From: a bacterium
GTDB lineage: Bacteria > Patescibacteriota > Saccharimonadia > Saccharimonadales > SZUA-47
Assembly: GCA_030427125.1 (NCBI GenBank)
Contig: JAUHXF010000001.1
Location: 19,091 to 83,090, forward strand
Length of the DNA stretch: 64,000 bases
Direction of reading: 5' to 3'
Shown piece by piece: positions 20,572 to 56,662 of this stretch. Position 1 is the stretch's first letter. Every line of letters starts with the position of its first letter. The notes below the pieces were generated by a model. That model was not told the DNA's origin. It ran no database searches and worked only from the letters and a program-made list of their open reading frames with translations. The position numbers were made by a program, and so were the translations under genes.

Positions 20572-21195
20572 GTGAATATTTTCAAAAATTACTGGGCCGA
20601 AGTGTTATTTATCATTTTGACAATTGGCGGAATAGTCTTGCTGGCTCTCGGTGTTGACACGATTATTCGGCTTACTCCACTTTATATATTGTTGAACGCC
20701 GCAATAATTGTGTATAGGTACTGGTCGATTCCTCATATCAAATCTATTATTGGTGTTGCTGCTTGCATCGGATTCTTCGCTGAATTATTAGGTGTGCAAA
20801 CAGGCATTATATTTGGGGATTACATATATGGTTCAGTACTTGGTCCGAAAATATTCGATGTGCCTATTATGGTCGGTGTTATGTGGGCGCTCGTGATGCT
20901 CGTTATTTGGTCGGTTCTTCCAGAAAAGTGGCGGCTGTATAGAATCCCTGTAGCTGGTTTGCTGGCAGCGCTGTACGACTTAGTTCTTGAGCATTTTGCA
21001 ACTCGGTTTGGTTTATGGGGTTGGGACGGAAGTATTCCACTGAGCAATTATCTTGGTTGGTTTGTAGTAGCCACGCTAATTGCGAGCATATATACATATA
21101 ATGGTTATGTGCTGAAGCCAACAGTAATTGCAGCTATCACAATGCCCCTACATATCGTGTTTTTTGTGACTGCGCTTGTGCTCGTGCGTGTCTAG
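20572..21195 (+). CDS. Carotenoid biosynthesis protein family (DUF422/PF04240-like) membrane protein
   Basis: Polytopic. The TGIIFGDYIYGSVLGPKIFDVPIMVGVMWAL block resembles the conserved FGxYxY..LG...VP....W core of this family. GTG start. Confidence 0.5.
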   Translation: MNIFKNYWAEVLFIILTIGGIVLLALGVDTIIRLTPLYILLNAAIIVYRYWSIPHIKSIIGVAACIGFFAELLGVQTGIIFGDYIYGSVLGPKIFDVPIMVGVMWALVMLVIWSVLPEKWRLYRIPVAGLLAALYDLVLEHFATRFGLWGWDGSIPLSNYLGWFVVATLIASIYTYNGYVLKPTVIAAITMPLHIVFFVTALVLVRV

Positions 21196-21240
21196 AATTG
21201 ACGATTCACATATACTAGTAGACATAACGGAGGGTACAAC

Positions 21241-21534
21241 ATGGCAGCAAAATCTACGAAAGATAAAGAATTCGAGAAGGAATTTGAAAAAAACTTTGAG
21301 CGGTATATAAAGTCAAAATTTGAAGGTTGGGATAAGAAAAGTAAAAAGAATAATGCATCCACTCACTCGAGTGGTGGAGCACTTTACTTCGTTGGATTTG
21401 TAGGAGCGCTCGTGTATTGGATGCAAGCGGCAGTTGGTTTCGGCGCTGTGTTAACTGGTTTCTTAAAAGCGCTCGCCTGGCCAGCATACGTTGTGTATAA
21501 ACTGCTCGAAAACTTTTATGGCGTCGTACTTTAA
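21241..21534 (+). CDS. Hypothetical membrane protein
   Basis: 97 aa with a charged N-terminus and two TM helices. GGAGGG lies upstream as a Shine-Dalgarno sequence. Confidence 0.5.
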   Translation: MAAKSTKDKEFEKEFEKNFERYIKSKFEGWDKKSKKNNASTHSSGGALYFVGFVGALVYWMQAAVGFGAVLTGFLKALAWPAYVVYKLLENFYGVVL

Positions 21535-21582
21535 GCGAATGTAATCGTCCACATCCTGTATAATTGCATGCAAGAGGAATGA

Positions 21583-22302
21583 GTGGAAAATAAAAAAGAA
21601 TTTGCACTAGCCATGGTTATTATCGCCGTTGTTGCAGCTGTAATTGGTGGCTACATATTCATGCAGAATAGTGATGAAACTATGTCGCGACAAACAGACC
21701 CGCAGACGAATGGACAAGCCGGAGTTATTGCCATGTTGGGGCAGCAACAAGCAGCCCAGCCACAAGTCCAAGCGGAGTCCATCACACCTCAGCCCGTAGA
21801 GACACCAGAAACAAAACCTGTCGAAAATGAACCACCCGTAGATGAAACGATAGAACCGTATGATTTAAAACTGCCAGAGGGATGGAAGAAAAAAGATTCA
21901 AAAGATGTTGAAAAGTCATGTGTTACAGGCAAAGACGCAATTATCGACACATACCAAAAAGGTGCAGAAACGATAAAGGTGTACGAGAACACACGTCCAG
22001 GTGGTTGCAACGGTAAGACTGTTGCAGACGTTGATCTGGCATTTACATTCAATGAAGATGGTGAAGGGCTAAAAGTCGCAACCGGAAAAATAAAACAATG
22101 CAGTAAAGATGAAAATGAATTATGTCCAAAAGGAGATGGTCGCGTGAGCGTCTTTATTAGTAACTTGCAAGAATCTGAACTTATATCTAATCCAAAGACA
22201 GGCAATGGTTACTTTATCGAAATTGTAGATACTGAAGTTGATGCAAGTCTCGAAACTCAAGTCAAAAAACTCGCAAAATTAGTCCAAGACATCACCTTTT
22301 AG
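21583..22302 (+). CDS. Hypothetical secreted/anchored protein
   Basis: N-terminal TM helix, a Q/P-rich linker and a Cys-containing globular domain. GTG start with AGAGGAA upstream. Confidence 0.5.
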   Translation: MENKKEFALAMVIIAVVAAVIGGYIFMQNSDETMSRQTDPQTNGQAGVIAMLGQQQAAQPQVQAESITPQPVETPETKPVENEPPVDETIEPYDLKLPEGWKKKDSKDVEKSCVTGKDAIIDTYQKGAETIKVYENTRPGGCNGKTVADVDLAFTFNEDGEGLKVATGKIKQCSKDENELCPKGDGRVSVFISNLQESELISNPKTGNGYFIEIVDTEVDASLETQVKKLAKLVQDITF

Positions 22303-22306
22303 CTGG

Positions 22307-22738
22307 TCAGCGATGAAGTCTGAAGTATGGTTTTCTGATATAAAAAAGCACCTTCATAGTTCTCTTGCCTGGTTTAATGAGGTGTGTGTGCTGGTGGATT
22401 ACTGATTTAATGGTGCTTTGTGGAGCTCGAGCCCATACGTTGTAGCCATCTTTTTCATAGCTACTTATAAGTTGCACATATTCCTGGGCTTCTGTAGGGG
22501 TTAGGTCGCTTAGTGTGTCGGTATGTTGCTTCGGTACTATCATTAGGTGATCATTTACAGTCTGGTCATCCCAAAGTGAGTAGGGGAATTTATTAATAAT
22601 GATCTTAAAATGCTTAGTCTCAGATATAAATTCTTCACTTGAGCTGTCAATTTCACAGAAAACACAGTTTCTCTTCCCTTTGAAAGATCTTCTGTCTTTT
22701 TTGTAGCTTCGCCATTCTTTGGATGATCGTGTAGACAT
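22307..22738 (-). CDS. HIT family (histidine triad) protein
   Basis: CVFCEI and histidine triad HQHTHLI. I prefer the ATG at 22738, because the alternative GTG at 22759 would sit inside a TGcTACACT -10 box (22750-22758, minus). Confidence 0.65.
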   Translation of the reverse strand: MSTRSSKEWRSYKKDRRSFKGKRNCVFCEIDSSSEEFISETKHFKIIINKFPYSLWDDQTVNDHLMIVPKQHTDTLSDLTPTEAQEYVQLISSYEKDGYNVWARAPQSTIKSVIHQHTHLIKPGKRTMKVLFYIRKPYFRLHR

Positions 22739-22783
22739 AATAGGCAACAAGTGTAGCACCTATCGTGATTTAGAAGAAGAGGA

Positions 22784-22789
22784 TATACT
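22784..22789 (+). promoter_or_regulatory. -10 box (TATACT) 6 nt upstream of the uppP ATG; leaderless mRNA predicted
   Basis: TATACT-GGTGTG-ATG. Confidence 0.35.
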
Positions 22790-22795
22790 GGTGTG

Positions 22796-23572
22796 ATGAG
22801 CATTATAGAAGCAATCATTCTTGGTTTGCTGCAAGGTTTAACGGAGTTTATACCTGTTTCAAGCTCTGGGCATTTACTGATAGCTCACGAGATATTTGGT
22901 ACGACCACAAACACGCTAGCTTTTGATGTTGCTTTGCACGTCGGAACACTTATCGCACTTATCTATTACTTTTGGCGTGACATACTAACGCTCGCAAAGA
23001 ATGTGCTAACCAAAAATAAAGAAGGAGCTCTCGCTCGGTTATTGGTATATGCAACCCTTCCAGCTGCTTTGTTGGGGTTTGTTTTTTCTGATTTTATCGA
23101 CGACCACCTCAGAGAACCAATCGTAGTTGTTATAACGTTGAGCATTATTGCTGTACTCATGATAATTGCAGATAAGCTTTCAGTGAGTAGAAAAAAAACG
23201 GATGAAGTCTCAACAGGTCAGGGGTTGTCTATTGGCTTTGCGCAGGCGTTAGCGCTTGTTCCAGGCGTGTCACGTTCGGGTATCACGATAACAACGGGAG
23301 TTCTAGCAGGATTGACGAAGAAAGAGGCTGCACGATTTTCATTTTTGCTCGCGGTACCAATTATTTCAGGTTCAGCACTAGGAATTTTTCTTCAAGAGTC
23401 CGATGGACTGTCGACGGGTGGATGGCAAATAGCATTTGGTATGATTGCAGCTTGCATTAGTGGTCTATTTGCAATCAAATTCATGCTCGGAATTATTGAG
23501 AAAACTGGACTAACGCCTTTTGCATACTATCGATTTATCGTTGCTGTGTTGGTTCTTATCTTCTTAGTATAG
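22796..23572 (+). CDS. uppP: Undecaprenyl-diphosphate phosphatase
   Basis: SIIEAIILGLLQGLTEFIPVSSSGHL and GVSRSG motifs in a polytopic protein. Confidence 0.9.
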   Translation: MSIIEAIILGLLQGLTEFIPVSSSGHLLIAHEIFGTTTNTLAFDVALHVGTLIALIYYFWRDILTLAKNVLTKNKEGALARLLVYATLPAALLGFVFSDFIDDHLREPIVVVITLSIIAVLMIIADKLSVSRKKTDEVSTGQGLSIGFAQALALVPGVSRSGITITTGVLAGLTKKEAARFSFLLAVPIISGSALGIFLQESDGLSTGGWQIAFGMIAACISGLFAIKFMLGIIEKTGLTPFAYYRFIVAVLVLIFLV

Positions 23573-23602
23573 TAAAATACTGCTAAAGCTTAAGGGGGAG
23601 AT

Positions 23603-24340
23603 ATGACGTTTAGTGTAAACATGAAACGATTGTTTCAAGGAGCACAGTTTTTGCTAGTGATTGCAGTATTTGGGTTGGTTTTATGGTCTCAGCCATGGAG
23701 CACTACATCGAGCTCTGATGCGGTGAAGACGATTACGGTCACCGGTGAAACAACTATTGAAGCAACGCCTGATGAGTTTACGTTCTATCCGTACTTTCGC
23801 AAAGAGGGTACAGATAAAGATGCACTTCGAGAGGAACTTGTCTCAGATGCGAACGCTATCGTGAACTCCTTGAAGGACCTAGGAGTAGCCGAGGAACAGA
23901 TTCAGCTTGATGCAAGTAGTTATGACGCTTGGTACTGGCAAGAGGACGAAGAAGGGATTTTGACCGTAAACCTTACAATAACGACAAAAGACGACGATCA
24001 AGCGCAGGCTATACAAGATTATCTACTGACCACTGACGCCGAAGGACAATTAACACCTCAAACGACATTTAGTGATGAGAAGCAAAAAGAGTTAGATGCG
24101 CTTGCTGTGGAACAGGCTGCAGCTGATGCTAAAGAAAAGGCGGCAAAACAGGCAGAACTATTTGGAGCTGAACTCGGTGATGTGCAAGAAATTAGTCAGG
24201 GAAGAGATTCGATATTCGGAGGCTACCCTATTGCAGCTGAGCTAGATCTACAGCGTAGTAGCGAAGCTAGCTTACCAGTTCTTCCTGGTCAAGACGACTA
24301 TCGACAGACAGTCGTTGTCGTCTACGAGTTGAAGCAATAA
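23603..24340 (+). CDS. SIMPL (DUF541) domain protein
   Basis: Signal anchor, ITVTGE...EATPDE start of the domain and LPVLPGQ...VVVVYEL end. AAGGGGGAG lies upstream as a Shine-Dalgarno sequence. Confidence 0.65.
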   Translation: MTFSVNMKRLFQGAQFLLVIAVFGLVLWSQPWSTTSSSDAVKTITVTGETTIEATPDEFTFYPYFRKEGTDKDALREELVSDANAIVNSLKDLGVAEEQIQLDASSYDAWYWQEDEEGILTVNLTITTKDDDQAQAIQDYLLTTDAEGQLTPQTTFSDEKQKELDALAVEQAAADAKEKAAKQAELFGAELGDVQEISQGRDSIFGGYPIAAELDLQRSSEASLPVLPGQDDYRQTVVVVYELKQ

Positions 24341-25468
24341 TTACGCCGCGTGCGTGTAGATGAATTCCAAATGTCTATCTTTATATAAAATATTTGGTCC
24401 GGGTGGGTTATATCTTGGTCTGTATTTTCCGGATGGTTTAAAGATGCTACCGGCTGCGCTAATTTCCCAAGCTGCTTGATGCACATCATTTTGCTTCTCG
24501 ATAAACCGTGGAGCGAGAAACGCAAACGGTGTTGGTTGTGGCTTGAGTAGCGTGTCTCTTTTGCCTGTAAATGGATTGGTATAAATATAGAGCGGTATGA
24601 CCATGACGTCGCTCATATCATCATGTCTTCCTCCAGCGATGAGTTTGGTAGTTCCAGAGGCATATGTAGCTTCAATATCGCGCTGTATGTCATGATTAAC
24701 CTCCATTTCTGTCCCTGCTGGTGCCATGAATATATCGCGACCGGATAGTTTACGTAATGCTTTATAGGCTTGCACGGTGCTCCCATTCAAATTCTTTCGG
24801 AGCTGACCTCCCTGAGGAACTCGATTAATAAATCTATCGTAGCCCGAGCCACTGCTCGGAAGTGTGCCAACTTGGCCGCCTGCAACTAGCAGTACGTCAT
24901 CTGAGATGAAGCCACCTTGATGCTCAAAATCACTCGGTTCATACAGTGTTTTAATCAGATCATTTTGGAATAAGTTGATAAGTCTGTGCGTAATTATATC
25001 TTGTGAGTGCTGTGGGTTATCTTGACCAGCCATGAGTTTTGCAATCGCTGATGCAGCTAATAATGAAGGTAAATCTGCGTATGTCTGGTGATTACAGATG
25101 AATAGAATATTGCCGCCTAGTGCTTTGTGGCGCTGAACGTCATCGCTGGAGTATATTTCTGAGAAGGCCGTAACCAGTGCCTCCCAGTCCCCGGGAAGCA
25201 TGACAAGACTACCTACAGTGTTAGACAACCACTCGATATGTTCAGGGCTTATGTCTTCGCGTGCGGGCAGGTAGGAGTACGAAGCATCCAGTGGGTGGGG
25301 CCTTCCAAGACGATCGAGATCTTCAGGGAATTCTCTAACACCGAAGCGAGAAGCATGTTTTGACGAATTAATCTCATGAGCCAGGTGTTCATGGATTGCT
25401 TGAGATTGTTCCGGAGAGACTTCGACACGCTGATCTTCAGCTAGGACATACGTATTTCGCATACTCAT
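24341..25468 (-). CDS. Putative acyltransferase (PlsC/GPAT-like HX4D motif)
   Basis: 375 aa. CNHQTYADLP contains the H-x4-D acyltransferase motif. The rest is unassigned. Confidence 0.4.
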   Translation of the reverse strand: MSMRNTYVLAEDQRVEVSPEQSQAIHEHLAHEINSSKHASRFGVREFPEDLDRLGRPHPLDASYSYLPAREDISPEHIEWLSNTVGSLVMLPGDWEALVTAFSEIYSSDDVQRHKALGGNILFICNHQTYADLPSLLAASAIAKLMAGQDNPQHSQDIITHRLINLFQNDLIKTLYEPSDFEHQGGFISDDVLLVAGGQVGTLPSSGSGYDRFINRVPQGGQLRKNLNGSTVQAYKALRKLSGRDIFMAPAGTEMEVNHDIQRDIEATYASGTTKLIAGGRHDDMSDVMVIPLYIYTNPFTGKRDTLLKPQPTPFAFLAPRFIEKQNDVHQAAWEISAAGSIFKPSGKYRPRYNPPGPNILYKDRHLEFIYTHAA

Positions 25469-25577
25469 ACAGTAAACTAGTTAAGGGACAATAAAAAGTA
25501 AAAAATACTATATCTAGCGTTTAGAATTGAGTGTACACTACTAGCAGTTTCGAGCAATCGAGCGCTTAAAAGCAAAA

Positions 25578-25670
25578 ATCGCCGGAAGAAGGGTGTAATT
25601 CCCTCACTGTGCCGCAACGGTTAAAGTCCGATCTGGCGTTAAAGTCCCGAGCAGGAAAACGAGAGATTTG
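25578..25670 (+). promoter_or_regulatory. Cobalamin riboswitch-like element (compact, class-II-like)
   Basis: The core CGGAA-GAAG-GGTG-TAATTCC-CTCA-CTG-T-GCCGC-AACGGT-TAAAGTCCGATCTGGCG follows my recollection of the RF00174 blocks (GGGAA, GGTGnnAAnTCC, CnG..CCGCnACnGT, B12-box-like AGTCCGA..CTGGCG). Hand-folded helices are 25580-85/25633-38, 25590-93/25601-04 and 25606-10/25617-21. Confidence 0.5.
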
Positions 25671-25680
25671 TATCTTCAAG

Positions 25681-25712
25681 CCCTCTTTACCAACGCTGGG
25701 AAGAGGGTTTTT
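25681..25712 (+). terminator. Intrinsic terminator / RBS-sequestering hairpin forming the riboswitch expression platform
   Basis: CCCTCTT (25681-87) pairs with AAGAGGG (25701-07), followed by T5. The hairpin 3' arm GGAAGAGGG is the only Shine-Dalgarno-like sequence before ATG 25715. Confidence 0.6.
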
Positions 25713-25714
25713 AA

Positions 25715-27361
25715 ATGAGTGTCGGGCAACACTTGAGTGAGGTGAGTTTAGATAAATACGAACAGGAACTACTACAAGATCCTGGTATTCAAGATGCGTA
25801 TGTAGATTTTGAGATGCAACGATTAGATGAGCAGCTTCTTGCACAGAATCGACTGCTCACGGAAGTCGACCATTTACTTGCGCTTCGCGTAGGGCCAAAT
25901 CAATTTGTCGATACTAAAGACGTTTTACAAAACATGGAAACGTCTATGCAAGAACAGGCTATGCCGTATGCGGTTACGACAACTGAGCATGATATTGATA
26001 TAGAAAAAAACACAAAAGAAAGAATTGTGCGTTGGCTCGGGATGACAGCGGTACAGGTGGCCGTATCGGGCTATGACTTTCATGCGCATGAGTCAGCTAG
26101 AGAACGCGTAGCAGTAGAGATTGACGAAGCGTACAGGGCCTCAACGCATCAGGATGACGGTACGATGCGGGTGTTTGTATCACCACGTATGAGCCGAAAG
26201 GATGCAAGTCTAGAAGTAGCTCGCAGTGAGCACCTCGGTGACGACGATGCTATTCGTGTGAGCTGGGTAAAAACTCTTCCAGACGGATCACAAAAACGAG
26301 TTCTGCAGTCGATCCTTGTACGGGATATTCCACTGTCAGCTTGGGTGGCAATGTTTGAAGATTCAAACAATATTTTCGGTAGGTCGATGAGTGTTGAAGA
26401 TTCTGAGTCTGCCTTATCAATTATGAAGCTGCATGACCAGCTCGATATCGATATGGATAAGTTACCCCATGGTCCAATCTCAGTAATAGAGGCTGTAATA
26501 CCGTACATAGATGATGCTCAGATACGTATGAAGGTTATCGAACAGTCTAAGAAGTACTATGGAGATCAAACTGCGATGCAGCGCGAAGCTGAAGCAAAAG
26601 CGAAGGAATGGTTGGTGTTTGATAAAGAGCTCGCAGAGAGTCTCTATAACGAACAAGCAACTTCGAAAATAAAGAGCTTCGTTTATTCACTGCAACATGA
26701 GTGGAGCAAGAAAGATCTTGCTACGCTGAAACGTCACGAGCTGCCATATGCAGGGTATCGAATGACCAGAGAGTTAGCGGCGATGCTTGAAAGTGCACAG
26801 CAAAAAATCCTGGCAGGGCGTGCAGCGTTAACGTCAAACCCAGAGTATGTCTTGAAAAAACTAGGTGGGGATACAAGGCAGTTACAACAATTGCAAGACG
26901 TCGAGAGGTTGATCGCAGTAGCTCGACATGAAGGTATGAATCAAAATCAATTACTCGCTATGCATGTGAGAGCAATTGCAAGCAATAATATTGATGGTGG
27001 TGGTGGTGGGTGCGCTGGTAGTAGCTCAACTGAATTTGGAAAAGAAGATGATCCATTTAATGACGAATATAAAGGTTTTACTGAGTCTGTATTTGATTGG
27101 CAAGAATCTGAGCAAACTGAAGATGGCGGCGCGTGTGAATACAGCGGGACTTTCTGCTACTGCTGCCCTTACAATAGCGATGGTTCCGACGCTTCAAAAC
27201 CGTATGAGGTAACAATTATTCGAGACGAAAAAGGAACTGCTCGTTGTACTCGTGGTGGGTGTGGAGCGACGATGAAAGGCGATACTGTTACAGACAAAGG
27301 TGGGATTTACAAAAAAGCGCAGGAGCATAGGAAAAATGAACAATTTACCGTCGCAGCCTAA
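25715..27361 (+). CDS. Hypothetical 548-aa cytoplasmic protein with C-terminal Gly/Cys-rich module
   Basis: Long clean ORF with no TM segments. The C-terminus has GGGGGCAGS, then C-x6-CYCC, then C-x4-C. I recognise no family. Confidence 0.6.
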   Translation: MSVGQHLSEVSLDKYEQELLQDPGIQDAYVDFEMQRLDEQLLAQNRLLTEVDHLLALRVGPNQFVDTKDVLQNMETSMQEQAMPYAVTTTEHDIDIEKNTKERIVRWLGMTAVQVAVSGYDFHAHESARERVAVEIDEAYRASTHQDDGTMRVFVSPRMSRKDASLEVARSEHLGDDDAIRVSWVKTLPDGSQKRVLQSILVRDIPLSAWVAMFEDSNNIFGRSMSVEDSESALSIMKLHDQLDIDMDKLPHGPISVIEAVIPYIDDAQIRMKVIEQSKKYYGDQTAMQREAEAKAKEWLVFDKELAESLYNEQATSKIKSFVYSLQHEWSKKDLATLKRHELPYAGYRMTRELAAMLESAQQKILAGRAALTSNPEYVLKKLGGDTRQLQQLQDVERLIAVARHEGMNQNQLLAMHVRAIASNNIDGGGGGCAGSSSTEFGKEDDPFNDEYKGFTESVFDWQESEQTEDGGACEYSGTFCYCCPYNSDGSDASKPYEVTIIRDEKGTARCTRGGCGATMKGDTVTDKGGIYKKAQEHRKNEQFTVAA

Positions 27362-27512: not shown

Positions 27513-27518
27513 GAATTG

Positions 27519-40204: not shown

Positions 40205-41008
40205 ATGACTCAAAACGAACAGGTTTTTGTGAAAGCTGTTTGGGAATATTTCAACCATCATTCGCGCCAGATGCCGTGGCGTGAACCCGAGAAAGATGGT
40301 ACGTATGATCCGTACAAAATTCTCGTCTCTGAGCTTATGCTGCAACAGACCCAGGTAGATCGAGTTATACCGAAATATAATGCCTTTATTAAAGCATTCC
40401 CAAATTGCAAAAAACTTGCAGCCTCATCCCTAGGAGACGTATTAACTTTATGGTCTGGATTGGGCTACAATCGACGGGCGAAGTATCTCCACGACATTGC
40501 AAAGCAACTCGCAGGCAATCCGTTTCCTCGTACAAAAGAAGAGCTGTCGTCTCTGAAAGGCATAGGTGAAAACACAGCGGCTGCCATTCTGACGTACTCG
40601 TTCAACGAACCGCATGTATTCATTGAGACAAATATCCGCACCGTACTCATACATCATTTTTATCCCGGTAAAGAGTATATTGACGACAAAGATTTGCGAA
40701 ATAAACTGCAAAAGATAGTAGACACAGAGAATCCGCGTGAGTTTATGTGGGGGCTAATGGATTACGGCACCTACCTTAAAAAACAAGGAATAAAAACTCA
40801 TACAAAAAGCAAACATTACACGAAACAGGCTGCTTTTAGAGGTTCAACGAGACAATTAAGAGGCGAAGTACTACGTAGAGCGCAAAAAAGGAGCATGCTT
40901 TCAGATATGCACAAAGAAATAAACGATTCGCGACTGGATTCTGTCGTTAAATCCTTAGTTGATGATGGGTTACTGCTGGTTTCTGATGGCCGCGTGGTAT
41001 TGCCATAA
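40205..41008 (+). CDS. MutY-like HhH-GPD DNA glycosylase lacking an obvious Fe-S cluster loop
   Basis: PWREPEKDGTYDPYKILVSELMLQQTQVDRVIPKY and LKGIGENTAAAIL (HhH). No C-x6-C-x2-C-x5-C motif follows. Confidence 0.7.
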   Translation: MTQNEQVFVKAVWEYFNHHSRQMPWREPEKDGTYDPYKILVSELMLQQTQVDRVIPKYNAFIKAFPNCKKLAASSLGDVLTLWSGLGYNRRAKYLHDIAKQLAGNPFPRTKEELSSLKGIGENTAAAILTYSFNEPHVFIETNIRTVLIHHFYPGKEYIDDKDLRNKLQKIVDTENPREFMWGLMDYGTYLKKQGIKTHTKSKHYTKQAAFRGSTRQLRGEVLRRAQKRSMLSDMHKEINDSRLDSVVKSLVDDGLLLVSDGRVVLP

Positions 41009-42590: not shown

Positions 42591-43433
42591 ATGAGTATTG
42601 AAAGAGATATTTTTAAGAACGGCAGCACAACCTACTATTGGTCCAGTAAATTTTTCCCGAAAAAAGTCCGCGATGATGTATTCAAGCTATATTCATTCGT
42701 ACGTGTTGTAGATGATTATGTAGACAAACCGAAGCCAGACGTAGAGTCATTTAAATATATTGTCCATCGTTGGAAGACAGCGAAGAGAGATTTAGCCGGA
42801 TTCGATCCGCTGGATGATTCAATAGCAGAGCGTATTCTGCAAAATATTGTGTACATTGTGCATCGATTTAACTGTGATCCTGCGTGGGTCGATGCGTTTC
42901 TCGCCAGCATGCAGATGGATGTTAATAAACGACAATACAAGACCCTAGATGACACACTCGAGTATATTTACGGCTCAGCAGAAGTCATCGGTCTATTTAT
43001 GGTAAAGATTCTTGATCTGCCAGAAGAGTCACATGAGTTTGCAATGATGCAGGGTCGCGCCATGCAGTTTATTAATTTTATAAGAGATATTGACGAAGAT
43101 ATTGCTCTCGGTAGGCGCTATTTCCCGGACAAGGATTTAAAAGAATTTGGTTTGGAATCGTTAGTCAAGGACGAGGTTGAAAAAAACCCTGAAAAATTCC
43201 AGTCATTCATGAATCTGCAGCTGACTAGATATACAGAGTGGCAGTCTCAAGCAGACAAAGGCCTAGCGTACATTCCAAAACGACTGCGTGTTGCGGTTAA
43301 GACCGCAGTAGATGGTTACAACTGGACAGCCGAAGAAATCCATAAAAACCCAATGATAATCTACGAGAAAAAGGTGAAGCCAAGGAAACGACAGCTAGTG
43401 TTACGTGGTCTTGCTACTACAGTCAAAGATTAA
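42591..43433 (+). CDS. crtB: Phytoene synthase (squalene/phytoene synthase family)
   Basis: Aspartate-rich motifs VVDDYVD and RDIDEDIALGRRYFP, plus an N-terminal YYWSSKFFP block. Confidence 0.85.
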   Translation: MSIERDIFKNGSTTYYWSSKFFPKKVRDDVFKLYSFVRVVDDYVDKPKPDVESFKYIVHRWKTAKRDLAGFDPLDDSIAERILQNIVYIVHRFNCDPAWVDAFLASMQMDVNKRQYKTLDDTLEYIYGSAEVIGLFMVKILDLPEESHEFAMMQGRAMQFINFIRDIDEDIALGRRYFPDKDLKEFGLESLVKDEVEKNPEKFQSFMNLQLTRYTEWQSQADKGLAYIPKRLRVAVKTAVDGYNWTAEEIHKNPMIIYEKKVKPRKRQLVLRGLATTVKD

Positions 43434-43992
43434 GTTTTTCCTCTATCCAAGGAATAATATCTTCCGGAATGGCTTGGTCATCGTATATCGAAAACATCTT
43501 TCCGGACTTTTCAACATATTGTCTCTGGTCTACTAAGTCATTGATGTCTTTTTGGATCAGTTTTTTTCGTTTTTCAATTGTTTCAGGTGTATCACCACGG
43601 CTTTTCATGCGCGCAACAAGCAATTGCTCCCAGTCTTCCCGAGGCATCATGCCGATAATTAGTACATGATCGAGCTTTGAAAACTGCTCTGCCAGCCACG
43701 GCCAAATATTGACGAGTAAGTGCTTGCCCTTAGGCGTAATTGATTCTTCAGTGAATCCGTACCAATTTCCTCCAAATTCTTCTGCTACAATAAAATCGCC
43801 GTCCTTTCTCTTCTTCTCGAATTCTTCTTCACTCAGAAAAATCCTATCAGTGGCAATCTCGCCATCGCGGGGGAGGCGAGTCGTGTACAGTTTTGCTTGC
43901 TCGAATTCACCAGGATATCGTCTCATTAGCTCATCAGCAATAAATGTCTTGCCTACTGCAGAGGGCCCAGCGAACATAATAGTTCTATTCAT
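43423..43992 (-). CDS. Guanylate kinase-like P-loop kinase
   Basis: P-loop GPSAVGKT and TTRLPRDGE...F..EEF. The usual YGT is replaced by NWYGF. Confidence 0.6.
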   Translation of the reverse strand: MNRTIMFAGPSAVGKTFIADELMRRYPGEFEQAKLYTTRLPRDGEIATDRIFLSEEEFEKKRKDGDFIVAEEFGGNWYGFTEESITPKGKHLLVNIWPWLAEQFSKLDHVLIIGMMPREDWEQLLVARMKSRGDTPETIEKRKKLIQKDINDLVDQRQYVEKSGKMFSIYDDQAIPEDIIPWIEEKLNL

Positions 43993-44722
43993 GACTAGCT
44001 AAATCAAGTTGACTGAATCTTATATCAACCCAGTTGCCAGTATCAGTATCGAGTTCTGCTGGTAGCTGAATCGGGTCCCAACTAAGTTCTGCCATTGCTG
44101 GGTAATGTGCAGTGTAGTCGTTCAACCAGGTATCAAATGCAGATCGGTAATTACCGTTTTCTATCACTTGTCTCAAGCTTTGTATTGGCCTAAATAGTCC
44201 AGGCCTAGCTTCGTCCGAGTCTCTAGCATTCAAGGCAATATAGCTTGCCATAGCTGCATTAGCTCTAAGAGCTGAAACAATACCTAATGTACTGGGTATT
44301 GATCCATCATCGCTCATTTGCCAGTCTAGAACAGTAAATGGCTGGTTGCGAGTAATTAGAAGTCGTGCTTCATCAGGTGCTTCCCGAAGATCTAGTAGCT
44401 GTTCGTCAAGAAAGCACCTTACTAAACAAGACGCGATGTTTTCGATCTTTTGTAGTCTATTTCCTGTAAGATCAACCATTACAGTTTCTGATAATATTCC
44501 TACCTGGTGATCTGTCACTCCATTTTCGGCTCTAGCTTTATGCTCAACAGTAAAGACTCGACCTAATGGGTCTTCTATTGCAAAGCCATAGCCTATTTTG
44601 CCAAAACCATCTCGCTGTGCTTGCGCAATAGCAGCAATATCAAGCTTCGGAAACTGCTCACTCGTATTGATTAGTTCTGAGTAGACACCTAGATGTTCTG
44701 GAAGTGATAGTGAAGACGACAT
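43985..44722 (-). CDS. Hypothetical protein, overlapping and co-oriented with the kinase gene
   Basis: About 245 aa with no recognised motif. ATG 44722 lies 6 nt after a TATTAT box. The ORF-track TTG at 44737 is the alternative. Confidence 0.45.
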   Translation of the reverse strand: MSSSLSLPEHLGVYSELINTSEQFPKLDIAAIAQAQRDGFGKIGYGFAIEDPLGRVFTVEHKARAENGVTDHQVGILSETVMVDLTGNRLQKIENIASCLVRCFLDEQLLDLREAPDEARLLITRNQPFTVLDWQMSDDGSIPSTLGIVSALRANAAMASYIALNARDSDEARPGLFRPIQSLRQVIENGNYRSAFDTWLNDYTAHYPAMAELSWDPIQLPAELDTDTGNWVDIRFSQLDLASHE

Positions 44723-44774: not shown

Positions 44775-45380
44775 ATGGAGTATGTATATTACGTAGATGA
44801 GTCAGATACCCCTACGGGTGAGACGTCAGAAAAGTATACTGCTCATTACAGTGACACGAAACTGCATGCTGCGTTCTCGTGCTATATTTTCAACGAAGAA
44901 GGTAAATTCCTCGTAACTCAACGCGCTGATTCAAAAAAAGTCTGGCCTGGCGTGTGGACTAATTCTTGTTGTGGCCACCCCGCACCCGATGAGAGCAGAG
45001 AGGATGCCATTAACAGGCGAGTTCAATACGAATTGGGTATGAAAGTAAAGAACATCCGTCAAATCATCCCTGATTACATCTATAAAACACCACCGTATAA
45101 TGGCATTATTGAACATGAATATTGTCCGGTATATGTCGCAATAGCGGATTCTGATATAGAACCAAACCCAGATGAAGTGATGGATCATGCATGGATGGAT
45201 TGGTCTGAATATATGCAGAGATTAGAGAGCGACTCTGATGACTACTCTGTCTTTTCAGAAAACGTGCCAGCTGAAATCACAGATGATATGCCTAGGTGGA
45301 GCTGGTGGTGCAAGGATCAGCTAAAGCACCTAAAAGATAATCAAGCTTTCTCTGATTTTATTGAAGATATTATTTCTTAG
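44775..45380 (+). CDS. idi: Isopentenyl-diphosphate delta-isomerase, type 1 (Nudix fold)
   Basis: LHAAFSCYIFNEEGKFLVTQRADSKKVWPGVWTNSCCGHP and EHEY are type-1 IDI hallmarks. Confidence 0.85.
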   Translation: MEYVYYVDESDTPTGETSEKYTAHYSDTKLHAAFSCYIFNEEGKFLVTQRADSKKVWPGVWTNSCCGHPAPDESREDAINRRVQYELGMKVKNIRQIIPDYIYKTPPYNGIIEHEYCPVYVAIADSDIEPNPDEVMDHAWMDWSEYMQRLESDSDDYSVFSENVPAEITDDMPRWSWWCKDQLKHLKDNQAFSDFIEDIIS

Positions 45381-46233
45381 ATTCTTTTGGGTGGTGGACA
45401 ACTCGTTGTGGGAATGGAATCTCTATGCCGTTTTTATCAAACGCAATCTTTAGGCGTTTACGTAGTTCCCCGGTTGCAGCCCATTGCTCCATAGGTACAG
45501 TCGTGCCAAGAATTTTGACGTCTACCGACGAATCACCGAAGTTATCAACGCGCAAAAATACTGGTGCTTCAACGATAATATCTTTCCATTCTTCGTCGTT
45601 CGCGAGCTCTTCACCAACTTGGTTAATAACTTTTTCAACTTTGGCTAAATCGTCACTATAGCTCACGCCCACGTTTAGATTGATATTAGCAAAGTCCATG
45701 GTCATATTTGTTGCCATAGTGATTTCACCGTTTGGAATATGGTGTAACATGCCGTCCAAGTCGCGAAGTACGGTTGCACGCAGCGTGAATTTTTCCACTG
45801 TTCCTGACACTTCTTTATTTAATTCTACGACATCCCCAACTCGATATTGGTTTTCAAGCAGAATAAACGTACCTGTCACAACGTCTTTCACGAGCGATTG
45901 TGCGCCGAAACCAATTGCCAGACCAGCGATACCGGCGCTTGCGATAAGTGGTCCAAGATTGATATTGAATTGCCCCAAGACAATCATGACTGCTACAGCC
46001 CATATGAATACAGTGGCTGTGGTTGAGAGGATGCTTTTTAGCGTGTCTTCACGAGCCACTTCATCTCTCTCTGACTCAAATTGGTTTGATTTAACAGCTC
46101 GCTCAACCGCACGACCAATGAATGTGTTAACGGTTTTCTGTGCAAAGCTAGCAATTGCAATAACGACTAAAACACCAAGGACATTGTTCAAAAAGAAATC
46201 AATAATCGTTTGCCATGTTGAGCTGTCTTCCAT
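45370..46233 (-). CDS. Small-conductance mechanosensitive channel (MscS family)
   Basis: Three TM helices and a beta-domain with the RVGDVVEL pattern. TGtTATACT lies 7 nt upstream of the ATG. Confidence 0.8.
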   Translation of the reverse strand: MEDSSTWQTIIDFFLNNVLGVLVVIAIASFAQKTVNTFIGRAVERAVKSNQFESERDEVAREDTLKSILSTTATVFIWAVAVMIVLGQFNINLGPLIASAGIAGLAIGFGAQSLVKDVVTGTFILLENQYRVGDVVELNKEVSGTVEKFTLRATVLRDLDGMLHHIPNGEITMATNMTMDFANINLNVGVSYSDDLAKVEKVINQVGEELANDEEWKDIIVEAPVFLRVDNFGDSSVDVKILGTTVPMEQWAATGELRKRLKIAFDKNGIEIPFPQRVVHHPKESKK

Positions 46234-50704: not shown

Positions 50705-50709
50705 TTAGC

Positions 50710-51357: not shown

Positions 51358-51367
51358 CGATAGAATT

Positions 51368-51398: not shown

Positions 51399-51417
51399 AA
51401 TGGTTACGACTTCTCGT

Positions 51418-52110: not shown

Positions 52111-52342
52111 CTATTCCCACCTAACCTTTCTCAATTTATAGTGTTATAAACATAAGTGTAATGCATATATGTACGCAAGTGCAATACTTTTTATAGGGTG
52201 AGGGCTATCATACGTGGCTGCTTATTCACAATAATCAATCCGTTTACGTAGCGCTTAATCTGTTAAAAAGAGTTGACAAGTGTTATTAACCAGTAGTATC
52301 GTGTGGTTACTAACTAATGTTAAGAGGGGAAAGGTGTAAGCA

Positions 52343-52543
52343 ATGGCTTATAAGCACACAAACTCAAAGGGTGTAACATACTATCTAAACTCAAAGGACG
52401 TTACGCTCCGAGGTGGAAAGACACAAACAATCTATTACTTTTCAAAAGACGAGCGACCTGAAGGTATCGATGATGTACCTGCTGGTATGCAAGTTAATGA
52501 AAACCCACGTAACGGCTTCCTAACTGTTAGCCGCAAGAAATAG
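52343..52543 (+). CDS. Hypothetical small protein
   Basis: 66 aa with GAGGGGAAAGG upstream, followed by a terminator. Confidence 0.5.
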   Translation: MAYKHTNSKGVTYYLNSKDVTLRGGKTQTIYYFSKDERPEGIDDVPAGMQVNENPRNGFLTVSRKK

Positions 52544-52564
52544 TACTAATTATTTCTTATATTA

Positions 52565-52595
52565 TAGCTCTCGGTTTTCGTCGGGGGCTATTTTT
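52565..52595 (+). terminator. Intrinsic terminator
   Basis: TAGCTCTCG pairs with CGGGGGCTA (including G-U pairs), followed by T5. Confidence 0.6.
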
Positions 52596-52633
52596 ATTGG
52601 AAACTAACTTCAAGCAGGTATATAGTTAAAGTG

Positions 52634-53404
52634 ATGAAATCAAGCGGGTCAAAACCAATTCTACAAGCAGAAAATCTCACGAAGCATTATGATGGGGTTC
52701 AAGTAGTAAAAGGGATTAGTTTTGACGTTAAAAAGGGTGAAATATTCGGGATTCTTGGCCCTAACGGGGCTGGCAAGACGACGACACTCGAAATGCTTGA
52801 AACAATGCGAGAGATTGATGGCGGCAAGGCAATCATAGCCGGCATCGATGTAGCAAAGAACCAAGATAAGGTTAAAGCTATCATTGGTGTGCAACCTCAG
52901 ACGCCGAATTTTGAGGAAAAGACCAAACTTGTTGAATTGATTAGTTTTCTAGCATCTTGTTATGGTGAAAAAGTTGACGCTATTGAGCTGTTAAAAAAGG
53001 TTAACCTTGAAGAAAAAGCCAACAGCTATCCTGAAAACCTTTCAGGAGGCCAGCGGCAGCGCTTTAGTATTGCTACTGCTCTTGTGCACGGACCGAAAGT
53101 ATTCTTCCTCGATGAGCCAACGACCGGCTTAGACCCACAGGCACGCAGAAACCTTTGGGATCTTGTAAAAGAAGTACGTGATAGCGGTATAACTGTTGTT
53201 ATGACGACGCATTATATGGATGAGGCTGAAATACTTTGCGATCGCGTTGCGATAATGGATGAAGGTAAAATCATCGCACTTGATACGCCAAAGAAACTGA
53301 TTAAAAACCTGCTTGCCAAAGGATTTAAGAAAGAGCAGCATGTGGAGCAAGCAGACCTCGAAGACGTGTTTATAGATTTAACCGGAAAGGCCTTGAGGGA
53401 ATAG
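52634..53404 (+). CDS. ABC transporter ATP-binding protein
   Basis: Walker A GPNGAGKTT, signature LSGGQRQRF, Walker B VFFLDEPTTGLD. Confidence 0.9.
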   Translation: MKSSGSKPILQAENLTKHYDGVQVVKGISFDVKKGEIFGILGPNGAGKTTTLEMLETMREIDGGKAIIAGIDVAKNQDKVKAIIGVQPQTPNFEEKTKLVELISFLASCYGEKVDAIELLKKVNLEEKANSYPENLSGGQRQRFSIATALVHGPKVFFLDEPTTGLDPQARRNLWDLVKEVRDSGITVVMTTHYMDEAEILCDRVAIMDEGKIIALDTPKKLIKNLLAKGFKKEQHVEQADLEDVFIDLTGKALRE

Positions 53405-53405
53405 T

Positions 53406-54524
53406 ATGAGTGATTTTCGTCGGGCTATTTTACCGATCACGACCTTTGTAAGGATCGATGTAAAGAGATTATTTCGAGATAAAGTAGCGATTTTCTTTGT
53501 CTTTGTCTTTCCGCTTATTTTCTTGCTGATTTTTGGAAGTATATTCAGTGGAGATAACAACGTATCGTTTCGTGTGGCGCTATTTAACGAATCAGAATCA
53601 GAAATTGCTACGGAGCTTGAGAATCAGATGAGAGAAAACGATTTCTTTCAGCTTGATGAGGATGTGACGACAGCGGAACAAGCGGAAGAAAAAATGAGTC
53701 GCGGCCAGCTTGACGCGACAATTGTACTGCCAGCAGAATTCGGTACGGTTGCGGAGGGGCAACAAAACCCAAGCGGTAATCTAGATATCACATATAACCA
53801 GTCGAATGAGAACGCAGGCCAAACATTGGCTTCAGTCATGAATTCTGTCATGGCAGAAATTAACAATCAGTTTGTGGATACATCTGTGCCATTTACGGTG
53901 ACCGCAAGCTCAACAGACACCCAGGGATTATCGCAGTTTGATTATACTTTTTCAGGTATTCTTGGATTCACGCTGTTAAGCCTCGGTATATTTGGTCCGA
54001 CAACAGTATTTCCACGGCTAAAACAACGTGGTGTATTAAGGCGGTACAAAGCAACGACGCTAAAAATATGGCAGTTTTTTACAGGGAATGTTCTTTCGAA
54101 TGCATTTGTGGGTCTCATCGCGCTCGTTATCATGTTCGCTGCAGCCGTTCTTATTTTTGATCTAAATATGCGGGGCAGCTACCTTAATCTCGCGATTGTC
54201 GTGACGCTCGGAACAATATTACTGTTTGGTATTGGACTTGCAATCGGTGGTTGGGCGAAGAATGAGAACCAGGCCGCGCCAATATCGCAACTGGTTACGT
54301 TACCGATGATGTTCTTAAGCGGTGTCTTTTTCCCTGTATTCTTGATGCCAGAAATTCTCCAAAACATTACAAGATTCATACCACTCACGCCGATCATTGA
54401 CTCCATTAGACTTGTTATTACTGAGAATGCTAGCTTGCTTGATCTTGGATCTGAGCTCGGGATAATTCTCGGCTGGACGGTAGTTGTTTATTTAGTCGCA
54501 TTCAAAGTCTTCCGCTGGGAATAG
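53406..54524 (+). CDS. ABC-2 type transporter permease
   Basis: 372 aa. N-terminal TM helix, a large extracytoplasmic loop and five C-terminal TM helices. It starts 2 nt after the ATPase stop. Confidence 0.75.
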   Translation: MSDFRRAILPITTFVRIDVKRLFRDKVAIFFVFVFPLIFLLIFGSIFSGDNNVSFRVALFNESESEIATELENQMRENDFFQLDEDVTTAEQAEEKMSRGQLDATIVLPAEFGTVAEGQQNPSGNLDITYNQSNENAGQTLASVMNSVMAEINNQFVDTSVPFTVTASSTDTQGLSQFDYTFSGILGFTLLSLGIFGPTTVFPRLKQRGVLRRYKATTLKIWQFFTGNVLSNAFVGLIALVIMFAAAVLIFDLNMRGSYLNLAIVVTLGTILLFGIGLAIGGWAKNENQAAPISQLVTLPMMFLSGVFFPVFLMPEILQNITRFIPLTPIIDSIRLVITENASLLDLGSELGIILGWTVVVYLVAFKVFRWE

Positions 54525-54531
54525 TTGATAC

Positions 54532-54540
54532 TGATAGAAT
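54532..54540 (+). promoter_or_regulatory. Extended -10 promoter (TGaTAGAAT) 6 nt upstream of the crtI ATG; leaderless mRNA predicted
   Basis: TGATAGAAT-TAAGTA-ATG, with no Shine-Dalgarno sequence. Confidence 0.5.
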
Positions 54541-54546
54541 TAAGTA

Positions 54547-55995
54547 ATGAAAAAAGTTGTCATTATCGGCGGTGGCTTCGGTGGGTTGTCTGCTGCGTGC
54601 TACTTGGCTCGTGATGGCTATGATGTAACGTTGCTTGAGAAAAACGATCATGTTGGTGGTCGCGGTATGGTCATGAAGGACAAGGGATATACGTTTGACC
54701 TGGGTCCAAGCTGGTACATGATGCCCGATGTGTTCGAAGATTTTTTTGCAGATTTTGGTAAGAAGACGTCAGAGTATTTTGAACTTGTGAAACTAGATCC
54801 ATCCTATAAGGTTTTTTTCGCCAATGAGCAATATGATGTACATGACGCACCAGAGGTGTTTACGCTATTTGAAGCGCTCGAAAAAGGGTCGTCGGAAAAA
54901 TTAAAGCTGTTCCTAAAGCAAACCAAAGAAGAATACGACACGGTTCGAAAAAATCTTCTCGAGCTGGCCATGACGAATCCAACTGATGCCCTGAATAGCT
55001 CAGCGATAAAGATGCTATCAAGACCTGAGTTGGTTGGCTCATACCATCGGCGGGTGAAACGCTATGTGAAAGACGAGAGGCTACAAAAAATTCTAGAATT
55101 TATGGTTGTCTTTATGGGCGGTTCACCTAAAAACATTCCTGCACTCTATTCGCTGCTTGCCTATGTCGACATGGGGCTTGGCATTTGGTATCCAATGGGC
55201 GGTATGAGTAGGCTTGCAGCCGCCTATGAAAAGCTTGCATTAGAACTAGGTGTAGCAATTCATACAAATCGTGAAGTAGTCGGGATAACACGTAAGAATG
55301 GTCGAGCCAATATTGTTGAAACAGTCGATGAGGCCTTTGATGCTGACATTGTTGTTGCTAATGCAGATTATCAGCATGTTGAGACAAAACTTCTTGGAAT
55401 AGAATCAAAAAAATGGGACAAGATGACCATGTCACCGTCCGGCTTGTTGATATACCTTGGCATAAATAAGAAGATTCCATTTTTGCGTCATCACAATCTG
55501 TTTTTTGATGTTGATTGGGACGCCCATTTTGGAGAAGTATTTGACCAGAAAGTATGGAGTGAAGAGCCGTTGTTTTATATTGGCGCGCCATCTGTCACTG
55601 ACCCTAGCGTTGCGCCAAAAGGGAAAGAAAATATCTTCATATTGGCTCCCATGGCAAGCGGCATCAAGGTAGACAAGGAGCAGGAGACGAGGACAGTAAA
55701 TAAAATTTTAGAAAGGATCTCTAAGCATACAGGTGTAGATATTGATAAACATACAGACGTTAAGCATGTGAGATCGCATCAGTATTTCATAGAGACGTTC
55801 AATGCATTCAAGGGTAATGCCTTTGGTCCAGCTCATACACTGAAGCAATCAGCTATTTTCCGCCCTAAAATGCAGAGTAAGCATGTACAAAATCTCTACT
55901 TTGTTGGGCAGTTTACTAACCCCGGTACAGGCGTGCCTTTGGTGACGATATCTGGTAAAGTTGTTGCAACGCTTATAAACAAGCGGGAGAAATAA
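54547..55995 (+). CDS. crtI: Phytoene desaturase family FAD-dependent oxidoreductase
   Basis: Dinucleotide fold VVIIGGGFGGLSAA, LGPSWYMMPDVFE and C-terminal FVGQFTNPGTGVP. Confidence 0.85.
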   Translation: MKKVVIIGGGFGGLSAACYLARDGYDVTLLEKNDHVGGRGMVMKDKGYTFDLGPSWYMMPDVFEDFFADFGKKTSEYFELVKLDPSYKVFFANEQYDVHDAPEVFTLFEALEKGSSEKLKLFLKQTKEEYDTVRKNLLELAMTNPTDALNSSAIKMLSRPELVGSYHRRVKRYVKDERLQKILEFMVVFMGGSPKNIPALYSLLAYVDMGLGIWYPMGGMSRLAAAYEKLALELGVAIHTNREVVGITRKNGRANIVETVDEAFDADIVVANADYQHVETKLLGIESKKWDKMTMSPSGLLIYLGINKKIPFLRHHNLFFDVDWDAHFGEVFDQKVWSEEPLFYIGAPSVTDPSVAPKGKENIFILAPMASGIKVDKEQETRTVNKILERISKHTGVDIDKHTDVKHVRSHQYFIETFNAFKGNAFGPAHTLKQSAIFRPKMQSKHVQNLYFVGQFTNPGTGVPLVTISGKVVATLINKREK

Positions 55996-55996
55996 T

Positions 55997-56662
55997 ATGC
56001 CTATCTATGCATTATTCTTACTTGGTATAACCTTAATAATCATTTCACTGAATTACTACTATAAATTGCATCTGTTTTCTATGAAATGGCAGGGTTTATT
56101 AGCTGGTTTTGGGGTTGTATCATTGCCGTTTATCATTTGGGATATCATCGCTACAGATAATGGCCACTGGGCATTTAACGAGGAGTTTATACTCGGACCA
56201 AAGCTATTTGGGCTACCTATTGAGGAGATTCTTTTTTTCTTCTTGGTGCCTGTTGTCATGCTTATTGTGTGGTATCTCGTTCGTTTTCGAGTGAAAGAAC
56301 GCTACATTGATACAACGATGTTTTATCGTCCGGTGCTCGTGTTTTTATTTTTCTCATCTTTGCTGACAATACATAGACCATACACGTTCATTGTCACGGC
56401 TGCAGCGACATTATTCTGGTTCGTCGCGGGAAAGACAGATTTCATGAACTCATATCGCTTCATTGTGTTTCAGTTCTGGCTTGTGCTGCTGTTCTTTATC
56501 TCTAACACATTGCTCACCTGGCCACCAGTCGTCACATATACAGATGGTGCAATTATGGGGTTGCGGATTGGGACTATCCCGATTGAAGATTTTCTCTACA
56601 ACTTCGTGCTCATCAATGGTTTCATATTGGCATATATGAAAACCGAGCGCCTGAAGAACTAA
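55997..56662 (+). CDS. Lycopene cyclase domain protein (fused CrtYc/CrtYd type)
   Basis: Two internally repeated membrane halves, each with the hPhEE-type motif (GLPIEEILFF and GTIPIEDFLY). It starts 1 nt after the crtI stop. Confidence 0.75.
   Translation: MPIYALFLLGITLIIISLNYYYKLHLFSMKWQGLLAGFGVVSLPFIIWDIIATDNGHWAFNEEFILGPKLFGLPIEEILFFFLVPVVMLIVWYLVRFRVKERYIDTTMFYRPVLVFLFFSSLLTIHRPYTFIVTAAATLFWFVAGKTDFMNSYRFIVFQFWLVLLFFISNTLLTWPPVVTYTDGAIMGLRIGTIPIEDFLYNFVLINGFILAYMKTERLKN

Follow-up and report, generated by a model that had tools for sequence, protein, structure and literature searches.

Introduction

Why should a member of the Saccharimonadales encode enzymes of carotenoid synthesis, where did the genes come from, and do they still serve a pathway now that they no longer stand together? 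These questions are raised by a 64,000-nt stretch of contig JAUHXF010000001.1 (assembly GCA_030427125.1, positions 19,091-83,090 of the forward strand; called the window throughout), in which five carotenoid genes lie at three loci over 36 kb: those for a candidate phytoene synthase (crtB), a type-1 isopentenyl-diphosphate isomerase (IDI; gene idi), a phytoene desaturase family protein (crtI), a fused lycopene cyclase (crtY) and a CruF-like membrane protein of family PF04240. Our reading of the genome is confined to these 64 kb and to short Logan contigs; each carotenoid gene occurs once in the 64 kb, where crtI is the sole crtI-family gene. We consider it likely that the five genes are native and have come down vertically from a single Saccharimonadales cluster, of which they are the dispersed remains; most likely they still specify a C40 carotenoid pathway.

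Orthologues of the five genes stand together in a related genome

The strongest evidence comes from an 881,425-bp Saccharimonadales contig (JGI 3300071643; locus L087), whose AspRS is 71% identical to that of the window. Here, in the same bacterial order, orthologues of all five window genes are contiguous, in the order dnaG-rpoD-cytidylate-kinase-like-pps-idi-crtI-crtD-like-PF04240-crtB-fused cyclase, where pps is a polyprenyl synthase gene; the cluster from pps to the cyclase is at positions 7501-15031. Identities to the window proteins are 54% for IDI, 62% for CrtI, 55.5% for the PF04240 protein, 57% for CrtB and 41% for the cyclase, and the IDI of L087, at 209.7 bits, is above the cutoff of its equivalog model. 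The second desaturase of L087 passes the crtI_fam model and has its best match in the 1-hydroxycarotenoid 3,4-desaturase CrtD (345.6 bits, against a cutoff of 500). The window differs from L087 in two respects: what is contiguous there is spread in the window over three loci, with crtI-crtY beside a pair of ABC-2 exporter genes, and the crtD-like desaturase and polyprenyl synthase genes found there are absent from the window's 64 kb. Since an intact orthologous cluster exists in L087, the three window loci are, to judge by gene content and order, one fragmented cluster and not parts assembled independently.

The L087 cluster is flanked by dnaG-rpoD on one side and by polA on the other. The ancestral cluster probably lay here too, because shorter crt clusters occupy the same chromosomal site in L002 and L088; across the three Saccharimonadales loci L002, L004 and L088 the arrangement at this position is crtI-crtB(-crtY)-pps. 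An isoprenoid role for the P-loop kinase encoded beside pps in L002, L003, L087 and L088 was considered and rejected, as the gene is probably a housekeeping neighbour of the cytidylate kinase type.

The closest relatives of the window, L085 and L086 (CrtI 73% and 68% identical, respectively), share with it a derived arrangement, MscS-MurC-MFS-ABC2-crtI-cyclase-dus. In L085 idi lies about 9 kb upstream, as it does in the window, and encodes a protein 64% identical to the window IDI; the L085 cyclase, in the equivalent position, is 54% identical.

Within this same ABC2...dus synteny, L086 (positions 7589-13735 of an 832,861-bp contig, ENA ERZ650159) has different genes in place of the fused cyclase. 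Their products are two CarR-domain proteins, encoded separately (103 and 100 aa), a UbiA prenyltransferase scoring above the NF009608 cutoff (285 against 217) and a second UbiA-like protein; a gene for an HpnB/CruG-like glycosyltransferase stands upstream of crtI. The split cyclase and UbiA layout is one that we take to resemble actinobacterial C50 clusters, and the locus looks like a variant for a C50 or glycosylated carotenoid, produced by non-orthologous replacement at one locus. We found no description of this replacement, by split cyclase, UbiA prenyltransferases and glycosyltransferase, in the searchable literature.

Host and integrity of the contig

The window AspRS has at least 120 matches at 69-82% identity, and every named one (these at 72-74%) is from Candidatus Saccharibacteria or Saccharimonadales. 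On this marker the host is a Candidatus Saccharimonadales, and the initial annotation was right to suppose a Saccharibacteria-type host from the Candidate Phyla Radiation (CPR).

The source is a metagenome-assembled genome (MAG), and the initial annotation itself raised the possibility that the carotenoid genes belong to another organism, through contamination or mis-binning. All five carotenoid proteins map, together with AspRS, GlmM and a Mur ligase, to one 193,797-bp NCBI contig. The stretch ABC2-crtI-crtY-dus is reproduced by an independent Logan assembly, and its synteny is kept in the two further assemblies L085 and L086. Base composition is native: the GC content of all five genes lies within about 1.2 standard deviations (SD) of the window mean, GC at third codon positions is within 1 SD of the window for four of the five (crtY being an outlier, z = 2.2), and codon usage agrees with that of the remaining window. 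Contamination and mis-assembly are very unlikely in view of the single contig, the Logan reproduction and the matching composition, and we regard the chance that the genes are foreign to this bin as close to nil. Proteins identical to those of the window are also present in run SRR24442557, from the oxic, brackish water of a shrimp biofloc, in a study that recovered 29 Patescibacteria MAGs (PMC10582022).

Identity of the carotenoid genes

All five open reading frames (ORFs) lie exactly where the initial annotation had placed its carotenoid genes, and profile searches match each one to the family that had been claimed for it (Table 1). The assignments differ in how far they reach. IDI passes both equivalog cutoffs for the type-1 enzyme and contains TNSCCGHP and EHEYCPV, which we take, by comparison with the E. 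coli IDI, to be active-site stretches. CrtI passes the crtI_fam model and has the GxGxxG motif for binding of flavin adenine dinucleotide at its N-terminus (IIGGGFGGLSAA, residues 6-17). Its top model is NF058655, for the bifunctional phytoene desaturase/3,4-desaturase CrtID, at 589.6 bits, which is under the cutoff of 640 and places CrtI outside CrtID as so defined; its closest Protein Data Bank (PDB) entries are the gamma-carotene desaturase 4REP (226 bits) and CrtI 4DGK (197 bits). The near-cutoff CrtID score and the best match to 4REP hint that CrtI is possibly bifunctional, acting also as a 3,4-desaturase. A literature search on 'CrtID' returned nothing relevant.

The cyclase consists of two CarR/Lycopene_cyc domains (residues 3-90 and 129-212) with a PxE(E/D) motif in each; the motifs, GLPIEE and IPIEDF, are invariant in an alignment of the window protein and five homologues. 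These features place it in the CrtYc/Yd type and predict cyclase activity. Heterodimeric or fused lycopene beta-cyclases of this type include CrtYc/Yd of Brevibacterium linens, haloarchaeal CrtY and the N-terminus of fungal CrtYB. The window protein is like them in having two CarR-type membrane domains, each with PxE(E/D), but in contrast to the heterodimeric enzymes its domains are fused in one 221-aa protein, which may close one ring or two.

For the PF04240 protein the family match is clear, but its scores fall far under the CruF equivalog cutoffs (51.8 against 154.7, 34.1 against 300 and 21.9 against 400). Of 80 related loci, the best-scoring ones from a GTDB scan, 28 have a homologue of it within a crt cluster.

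The phytoene synthase candidate has the Asp-rich motifs VDDYVD and DIDED, and passes none of the CrtB equivalog models, with which it reaches 86-88 bits where 480-550 would be needed; its score with HpnD, 118.7, exceeds these. A CrtB role for this PF00494 protein is supported by the adjacency of crtB and crtI in 71 of the same 80 GTDB loci, and the window protein is 50-52% identical to those encoded by the crtB genes adjoining crtI in L002 and L004. The scores leave room for a different reading, in which the synthase would make a C30 carotenoid of the CrtM/CrtN type from farnesyl diphosphate, with no need of a geranylgeranyl diphosphate (GGPP) synthase: the protein has nearly equal scores with the PDB entries for CrtM (8IS6, 53.7 bits) and for phytoene synthase (5IYS, 52.9 bits), and both HpnD and HpnC models outscore those for CrtB. 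We hold this to be highly improbable, as the synthase is accompanied by a crtI_fam desaturase and a lycopene cyclase of two domains, identity to staphylococcal CrtN-type genes reaches only about 33%, and the orthologous clusters contain a type-I GGPP-synthase-like gene.

Table 1. Features of the window discussed in the text (positions within the 64,000-nt window; bit scores are given with their cutoffs)
Feature	Position	Strand	Length	Basis
PF04240 membrane protein, candidate CruF-type carotenoid 1,2-hydratase	20572-21195	+	207 aa	PF04240 Caroten_synth, 78.2 bits (cutoff 25)
crtB, phytoene synthase candidate	42591-43433	+	280 aa	PF00494 SQS_PSY, 171 bits (cutoff 26)
idi, type-1 isopentenyl-diphosphate isomerase	44775-45380	+	201 aa	NF002995, 216.7 (cutoff 127); TIGR02150, 138.7 (cutoff 105.8)
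crtI, phytoene desaturase family	54547-55995	+	482 aa	TIGR02734 crtI_fam, 446.1 bits (cutoff 238.1)
crtY, fused CrtYc/Yd-type lycopene cyclase	55997-56662	+	221 aa	TIGR03462, 90.3 (cutoff 39.4); PF18916, 75.6 (cutoff 27)
ABC-2 exporter pair (ATPase, permease)	ATPase 52631/52634-53404; permease 53406-54524	+		PF00005, PF12698, PF01061
Candidate extended -10 element, TGATAGAAT (TGaTAGAAT)	54532-54540	+		6 nt before the crtI ATG; pattern only
Guanylate-kinase-like P-loop kinase	43423-43992	-		60 bits (cutoff 160)
NUDIX-like protein	43985-44722	-	245 aa	Weak NUDIX affinity of its family
Second DrrA/DrrB-like ABC-2 exporter pair	2160-3909	-		ATPase 37% identical to that upstream of crtI
DUF4386 membrane-protein paralogues (two) and TetR-type regulator	11857-14074			DUF4386, 148 and 95 bits; regulator by eye
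AdoCbl-II cobalamin riboswitch	25565-25644	+		44.2 bits (gathering score 36.5)
ORF downstream of the riboswitch	25715-27361		548 aa	No Pfam or NCBIfam match
ATP-grasp (RimK-like) and N-formylglutamate amidohydrolase (FGase) fusion	60469-62232	-	587 aa	Domain matches

Descent within the Saccharimonadales

In a CrtI tree the window sequence falls with L085, L086, L002, L004 and L003 into one Saccharimonadales clade. Two other Patescibacteria clades are present, of which one is made up of the elongase-type set L009, L015, L033, L036 and L025. Among the best 80 GTDB loci, the nearest CrtI sequences from outside the Patescibacteria are from Thermoplasmatota, Spirochaetes, DPANN and Asgard archaea, methanogens and haloarchaea, at 38-46% identity, and the picture is the same for the neighbours of CrtB, the cyclase and the PF04240 protein.

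These neighbours bear on the suggestion, made in the initial annotation, that the genes were acquired from actinobacterial hosts. In favour of a recent capture, Saccharibacteria live as epibionts of Actinobacteria (PMC9296517), and the split cyclase and UbiA prenyltransferase of L086 could be counted on the same side. However, the 80 closest GTDB loci include no Actinomycetota. The closest actinobacterial CrtI sampled, a plasmid-borne copy from Arthrobacter, is 34% identical, against 52-73% for Saccharimonadales and 40-46% for Spirochaetes and Archaea, and none of 13 plasmid-borne copies from Streptomyces is among the best 40 matches. The outgroups nearest to CrtI, CrtB, CrtY and the CruF-like protein are instead Spirochaetes, Thermoplasmatota and methanogens. 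Divergence is likewise that of a native gene: on a 186,759-bp contig AspRS is 74% and CrtI 73% identical to those of the window, the tracking being looser on the 881,425-bp contig that bears L087 (71% and 62%). Because CrtI divergence roughly tracks AspRS and the nearest outgroups are Spirochaetes and Archaea, the genes appear to have come down by vertical descent, with no recent actinobacterial capture. Together with the native composition described above, this leaves recent horizontal acquisition from an actinobacterial host with very little likelihood, and suggests an old acquisition followed by vertical inheritance in a subclade of the Saccharimonadales.

The predicted pathway and its product

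In the pathway that we propose, IDI would interconvert and balance isopentenyl diphosphate (IPP) and dimethylallyl diphosphate; a type-I GGPP-synthase-like polyprenyl synthase, presumably encoded outside the window, would supply GGPP; CrtB would condense two GGPP to phytoene; CrtI would desaturate phytoene to lycopene; the fused CrtYc/Yd cyclase would close one or both ends; and the CruF-like protein would hydrate a remaining psi (open) end. The set crtI-crtB-crtY-crtD-cruF is contiguous in spirochaete and Verrucomicrobiota loci. In lycopene-producing E. coli, CrtY together with CruF yields 1'-hydroxy-gamma-carotene, and addition of CrtD yields 1'-hydroxytorulene (PMC11855829). By analogy, the product would likely be 1'-hydroxy-gamma-carotene, or 1'-hydroxytorulene if CrtI also 3',4'-desaturates, and/or beta-carotene. 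The first of these would be expected, unless CrtI has that additional activity, because a CrtD of the L087 type is absent from the window; beta-carotene as a co-product is equally possible. The pigment would presumably reside in the membrane and have a photoprotective or antioxidant role, which would fit an oxic habitat.

The myxol pathway of Nonlabens spongiae and the deinoxanthin pathway of Deinococcus (PMC11855829) resemble this scheme in combining CrtB, CrtI, a lycopene cyclase and a PF04240 hydratase. They differ from it in that the window cyclase is a small fused CrtYc/Yd protein and not a flavoprotein CrtY, and in that the window PF04240 protein is short and so far below the CruF cutoffs; no CrtD, CrtA-OH or CrtZ was seen in the window.

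Isoprenoid supply

The initial annotation saw no crtE in the window, and this holds: neither the PROSITE polyprenyl-synthase signatures, in six frames, nor tblastn with Saccharimonadales polyprenyl synthases finds a GGPP synthase in the 64 kb. For the polyprenyl synthase linked to the clusters of relatives there are at least 120 sequence clusters with identities of 60% or above; those that are named are all from Saccharimonadales or Patescibacteria, and one member shares a 942-kb contig with a CrtI. Because the gene is so widely conserved in the order, it is probably encoded outside the window, elsewhere in this genome. The window also encodes UppP and the Mur ligase, so the organism must handle polyprenyl phosphates.

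Between crtB and idi stand two overlapping genes on the opposite strand. One encodes a guanylate-kinase-like P-loop kinase in which positions that contact guanine in yeast Guk1 are replaced (Y50 to R, E69 to V, S80 to F) and the phosphate-binding arginines are kept. The other encodes the 245-aa NUDIX-like protein, whose family is rare (13 representatives in 1.84 billion proteins); 4 of 12 members match PF00293, the best PDB match of the family profile is MutT (E = 0.008), and a single-sequence AlphaFold2 model of the protein (mean predicted local distance difference test score 36) was unusable. It could be imagined that a lineage lacking the C5 pathway feeds both its cell-wall lipid carrier and its carotenoid from salvaged host isoprenoids, with the NUDIX-like protein and the kinase beside idi regenerating IPP from isopentenyl phosphate or a related compound. 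Such a precursor-salvage role is speculative and we give it only a slender chance; the association of the two genes with idi is not kept in L085.

A working pathway or a decaying remnant?

Several points weigh against our interpretation and should be taken together. Genes may be lost after the cluster that once joined them has scattered. The 64 kb contain neither a UbiA-type elongase nor a second CrtI/CrtD paralogue, so that CrtD is missing along with the GGPP synthase, and no C5 precursor pathway lies within them; Pfam and NCBIfam scans of the remaining unassigned window ORFs found nothing else carotenoid-related. In a survey of freshwater CPR bacteria, classes other than Gracilibacteria, among them Saccharimonadia, were reported to have only the C10-C20 steps of isoprenoid synthesis (PMC9166423). 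The scores for the CrtB, CruF-like and CrtID models are below the NCBIfam equivalog cutoffs, and substrate and product specificities are predictions. The phylogeny, finally, has its limits: the CrtI tree is a midpoint-rooted neighbour-joining tree of 83 sequences that bears no support values, and the GTDB scan was seeded by two peptide patterns, covered species-representative genomes and kept the 80 best loci.

It might therefore be argued that the five genes are a decaying remnant, a fragmented cluster from which crtD and crtE have gone, with no prenyl diphosphate to draw on and no pigment made. Genes contiguous in relatives are indeed spread here over 36 kb, neither crtE nor crtD is within the window, and the class has been reported to lack C5 isoprenoid synthesis (PMC9166423). 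Decay is nevertheless unlikely, in our judgement. All five ORFs are full-length with their catalytic motifs conserved; the crtI-crtY arrangement and idi are intact in L085, at a divergence like that of a housekeeping gene; the polyprenyl synthase is widely conserved in the order; and UppP and the Mur ligase imply that polyprenyl phosphates are handled. We thus favour dispersal of the ancestral cluster with its pathway retained.

Gene arrangement and transcription

The ABC-2 exporter pair ends 22 nt upstream of crtI, as the initial annotation had it, and is preceded by a terminator-like hairpin (52564-52591) and a TTGGAA-18-TATAGT site ending at 52626. L085 and L086 have this pair before crtI too, with identities of 79% and 70% in the former and 74% and 60% in the latter. 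Adjacency to crtI recurs in L085, L086 and L070, but such transporters are very common, and a role as carotenoid exporter is no more than a possibility. A second DrrA/DrrB-like pair is present elsewhere in the window (Table 1).

A single nucleotide separates crtI from crtY, and the 3' end of crtI contains a GGGAG Shine-Dalgarno sequence, in clear agreement with the translational coupling that had been claimed for the two genes. The 22-nt spacer before crtI has no Shine-Dalgarno sequence. From the candidate -10 element within it, crtI and crtY would be transcribed together as a leaderless mRNA; alternatively, they may be transcribed by read-through from the ABC-2 genes. None of crtB, idi and crtI has a Shine-Dalgarno sequence, and each is preceded, 6-8 nt before its ATG, by a TAnnnT hexamer. 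Among 71 gene starts in the window, about 32 have a Shine-Dalgarno sequence, and about 17 that have none carry TAnnnT at that spacing, including those of crtB, idi, crtI and the ABC ATPase; examples of the gene starts concerned are those of 2971-3909, 40205-41008 and 45370-46233 and that at 52634. The existence of two such classes suggests that leaderless mRNAs are frequent in this organism. It had been proposed that each carotenoid locus has its own leaderless promoter. This is plausible in view of the pattern at crtB, idi and crtI, but generic promoter and terminator scans of the window gave counts at chance level, and the start of the cruF-like gene is ambiguous.

Downstream of crtY (region 56667-57803) a strong promoter-like site, TTGAAT-17-TGaTATAAT, ends right at the ORF 56696-57025 (+), whose true start may be the second ATG, at 56702. 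Neither this ORF nor the 262-aa ORF that follows has a family match; the latter is 58% conserved in the same position after crtY in L085.

Other features of the window

The AdoCbl-II cobalamin riboswitch is followed by a GC-rich hairpin and T-run right before the ATG of the downstream ORF, the product of which has a Cys-rich C-terminus. The two DUF4386 paralogues stand beside a divergently transcribed TetR-type regulator, and after the regulator, on the same strand, comes a quinone-oxidoreductase-like gene (by eye). The ATP-grasp and FGase domains of the 587-aa fusion protein are an uncommon combination.

Carotenoid genes in Patescibacteria and what they may mean

The initial annotation regarded cyclic carotenoid synthesis as unusual for a CPR organism, and this holds only in part. 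Among the top 80 GTDB loci, close CrtI relatives come from at least nine Saccharibacteria genomes, two of Dojkabacteria and one from another group of Patescibacteria; in a large protein collection at least 120 best-scoring CrtI clusters are all at least 47% identical, several of them on contigs of 0.6-0.94 Mb; and public annotations already carry entries such as 'phytoene desaturase family protein [Candidatus Saccharimonadales bacterium]'. From Lake Baikal, lyeJ, crtD and cruF have been reported in Patescibacteria/Saccharibacteria, one Saccharibacteria MAG having its cruF far from the others (PMC9948471). These bacterioruberin-type sets, which correspond to the crtI-crtB-ubiA(-cruF) loci L009, L015, L033 and L036, are like the window in being carotenoid genes of the same phylum and, in the case of that MAG, in having cruF detached. 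They differ in that the window encodes a lycopene cyclase but lacks a UbiA-type elongase, and in that its CrtI belongs to a different Patescibacteria clade. In the searchable literature we found no description of a cyclase-type, CruF-containing set in Saccharibacteria, nor of its fragmentation in one subclade. Carotenoid genes of Patescibacteria are thus already known, and the window extends the known picture without changing it.

Should beta-carotene be made, the pathway would touch the debate on the source of retinal in rhodopsin-bearing Saccharibacteria. In the window itself tblastn with bacteriorhodopsin finds no type-1 rhodopsin, and Pfam scans of the unassigned window ORFs, with no dedicated search, showed neither blh nor heliorhodopsin.

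Our findings indicate that, small as their genomes are (about 0.8-0.9 Mb), some environmental Saccharimonadales have inherited and retained the complete set of enzymes for pigment tailoring. That IDI, polyprenyl synthase and carotenoid enzymes are kept despite the reported lack of a C5 pathway sharpens the question of where these bacteria obtain their isoprenoids, and the retention of pigment enzymes bears on how such epibionts cope with light and oxygen.

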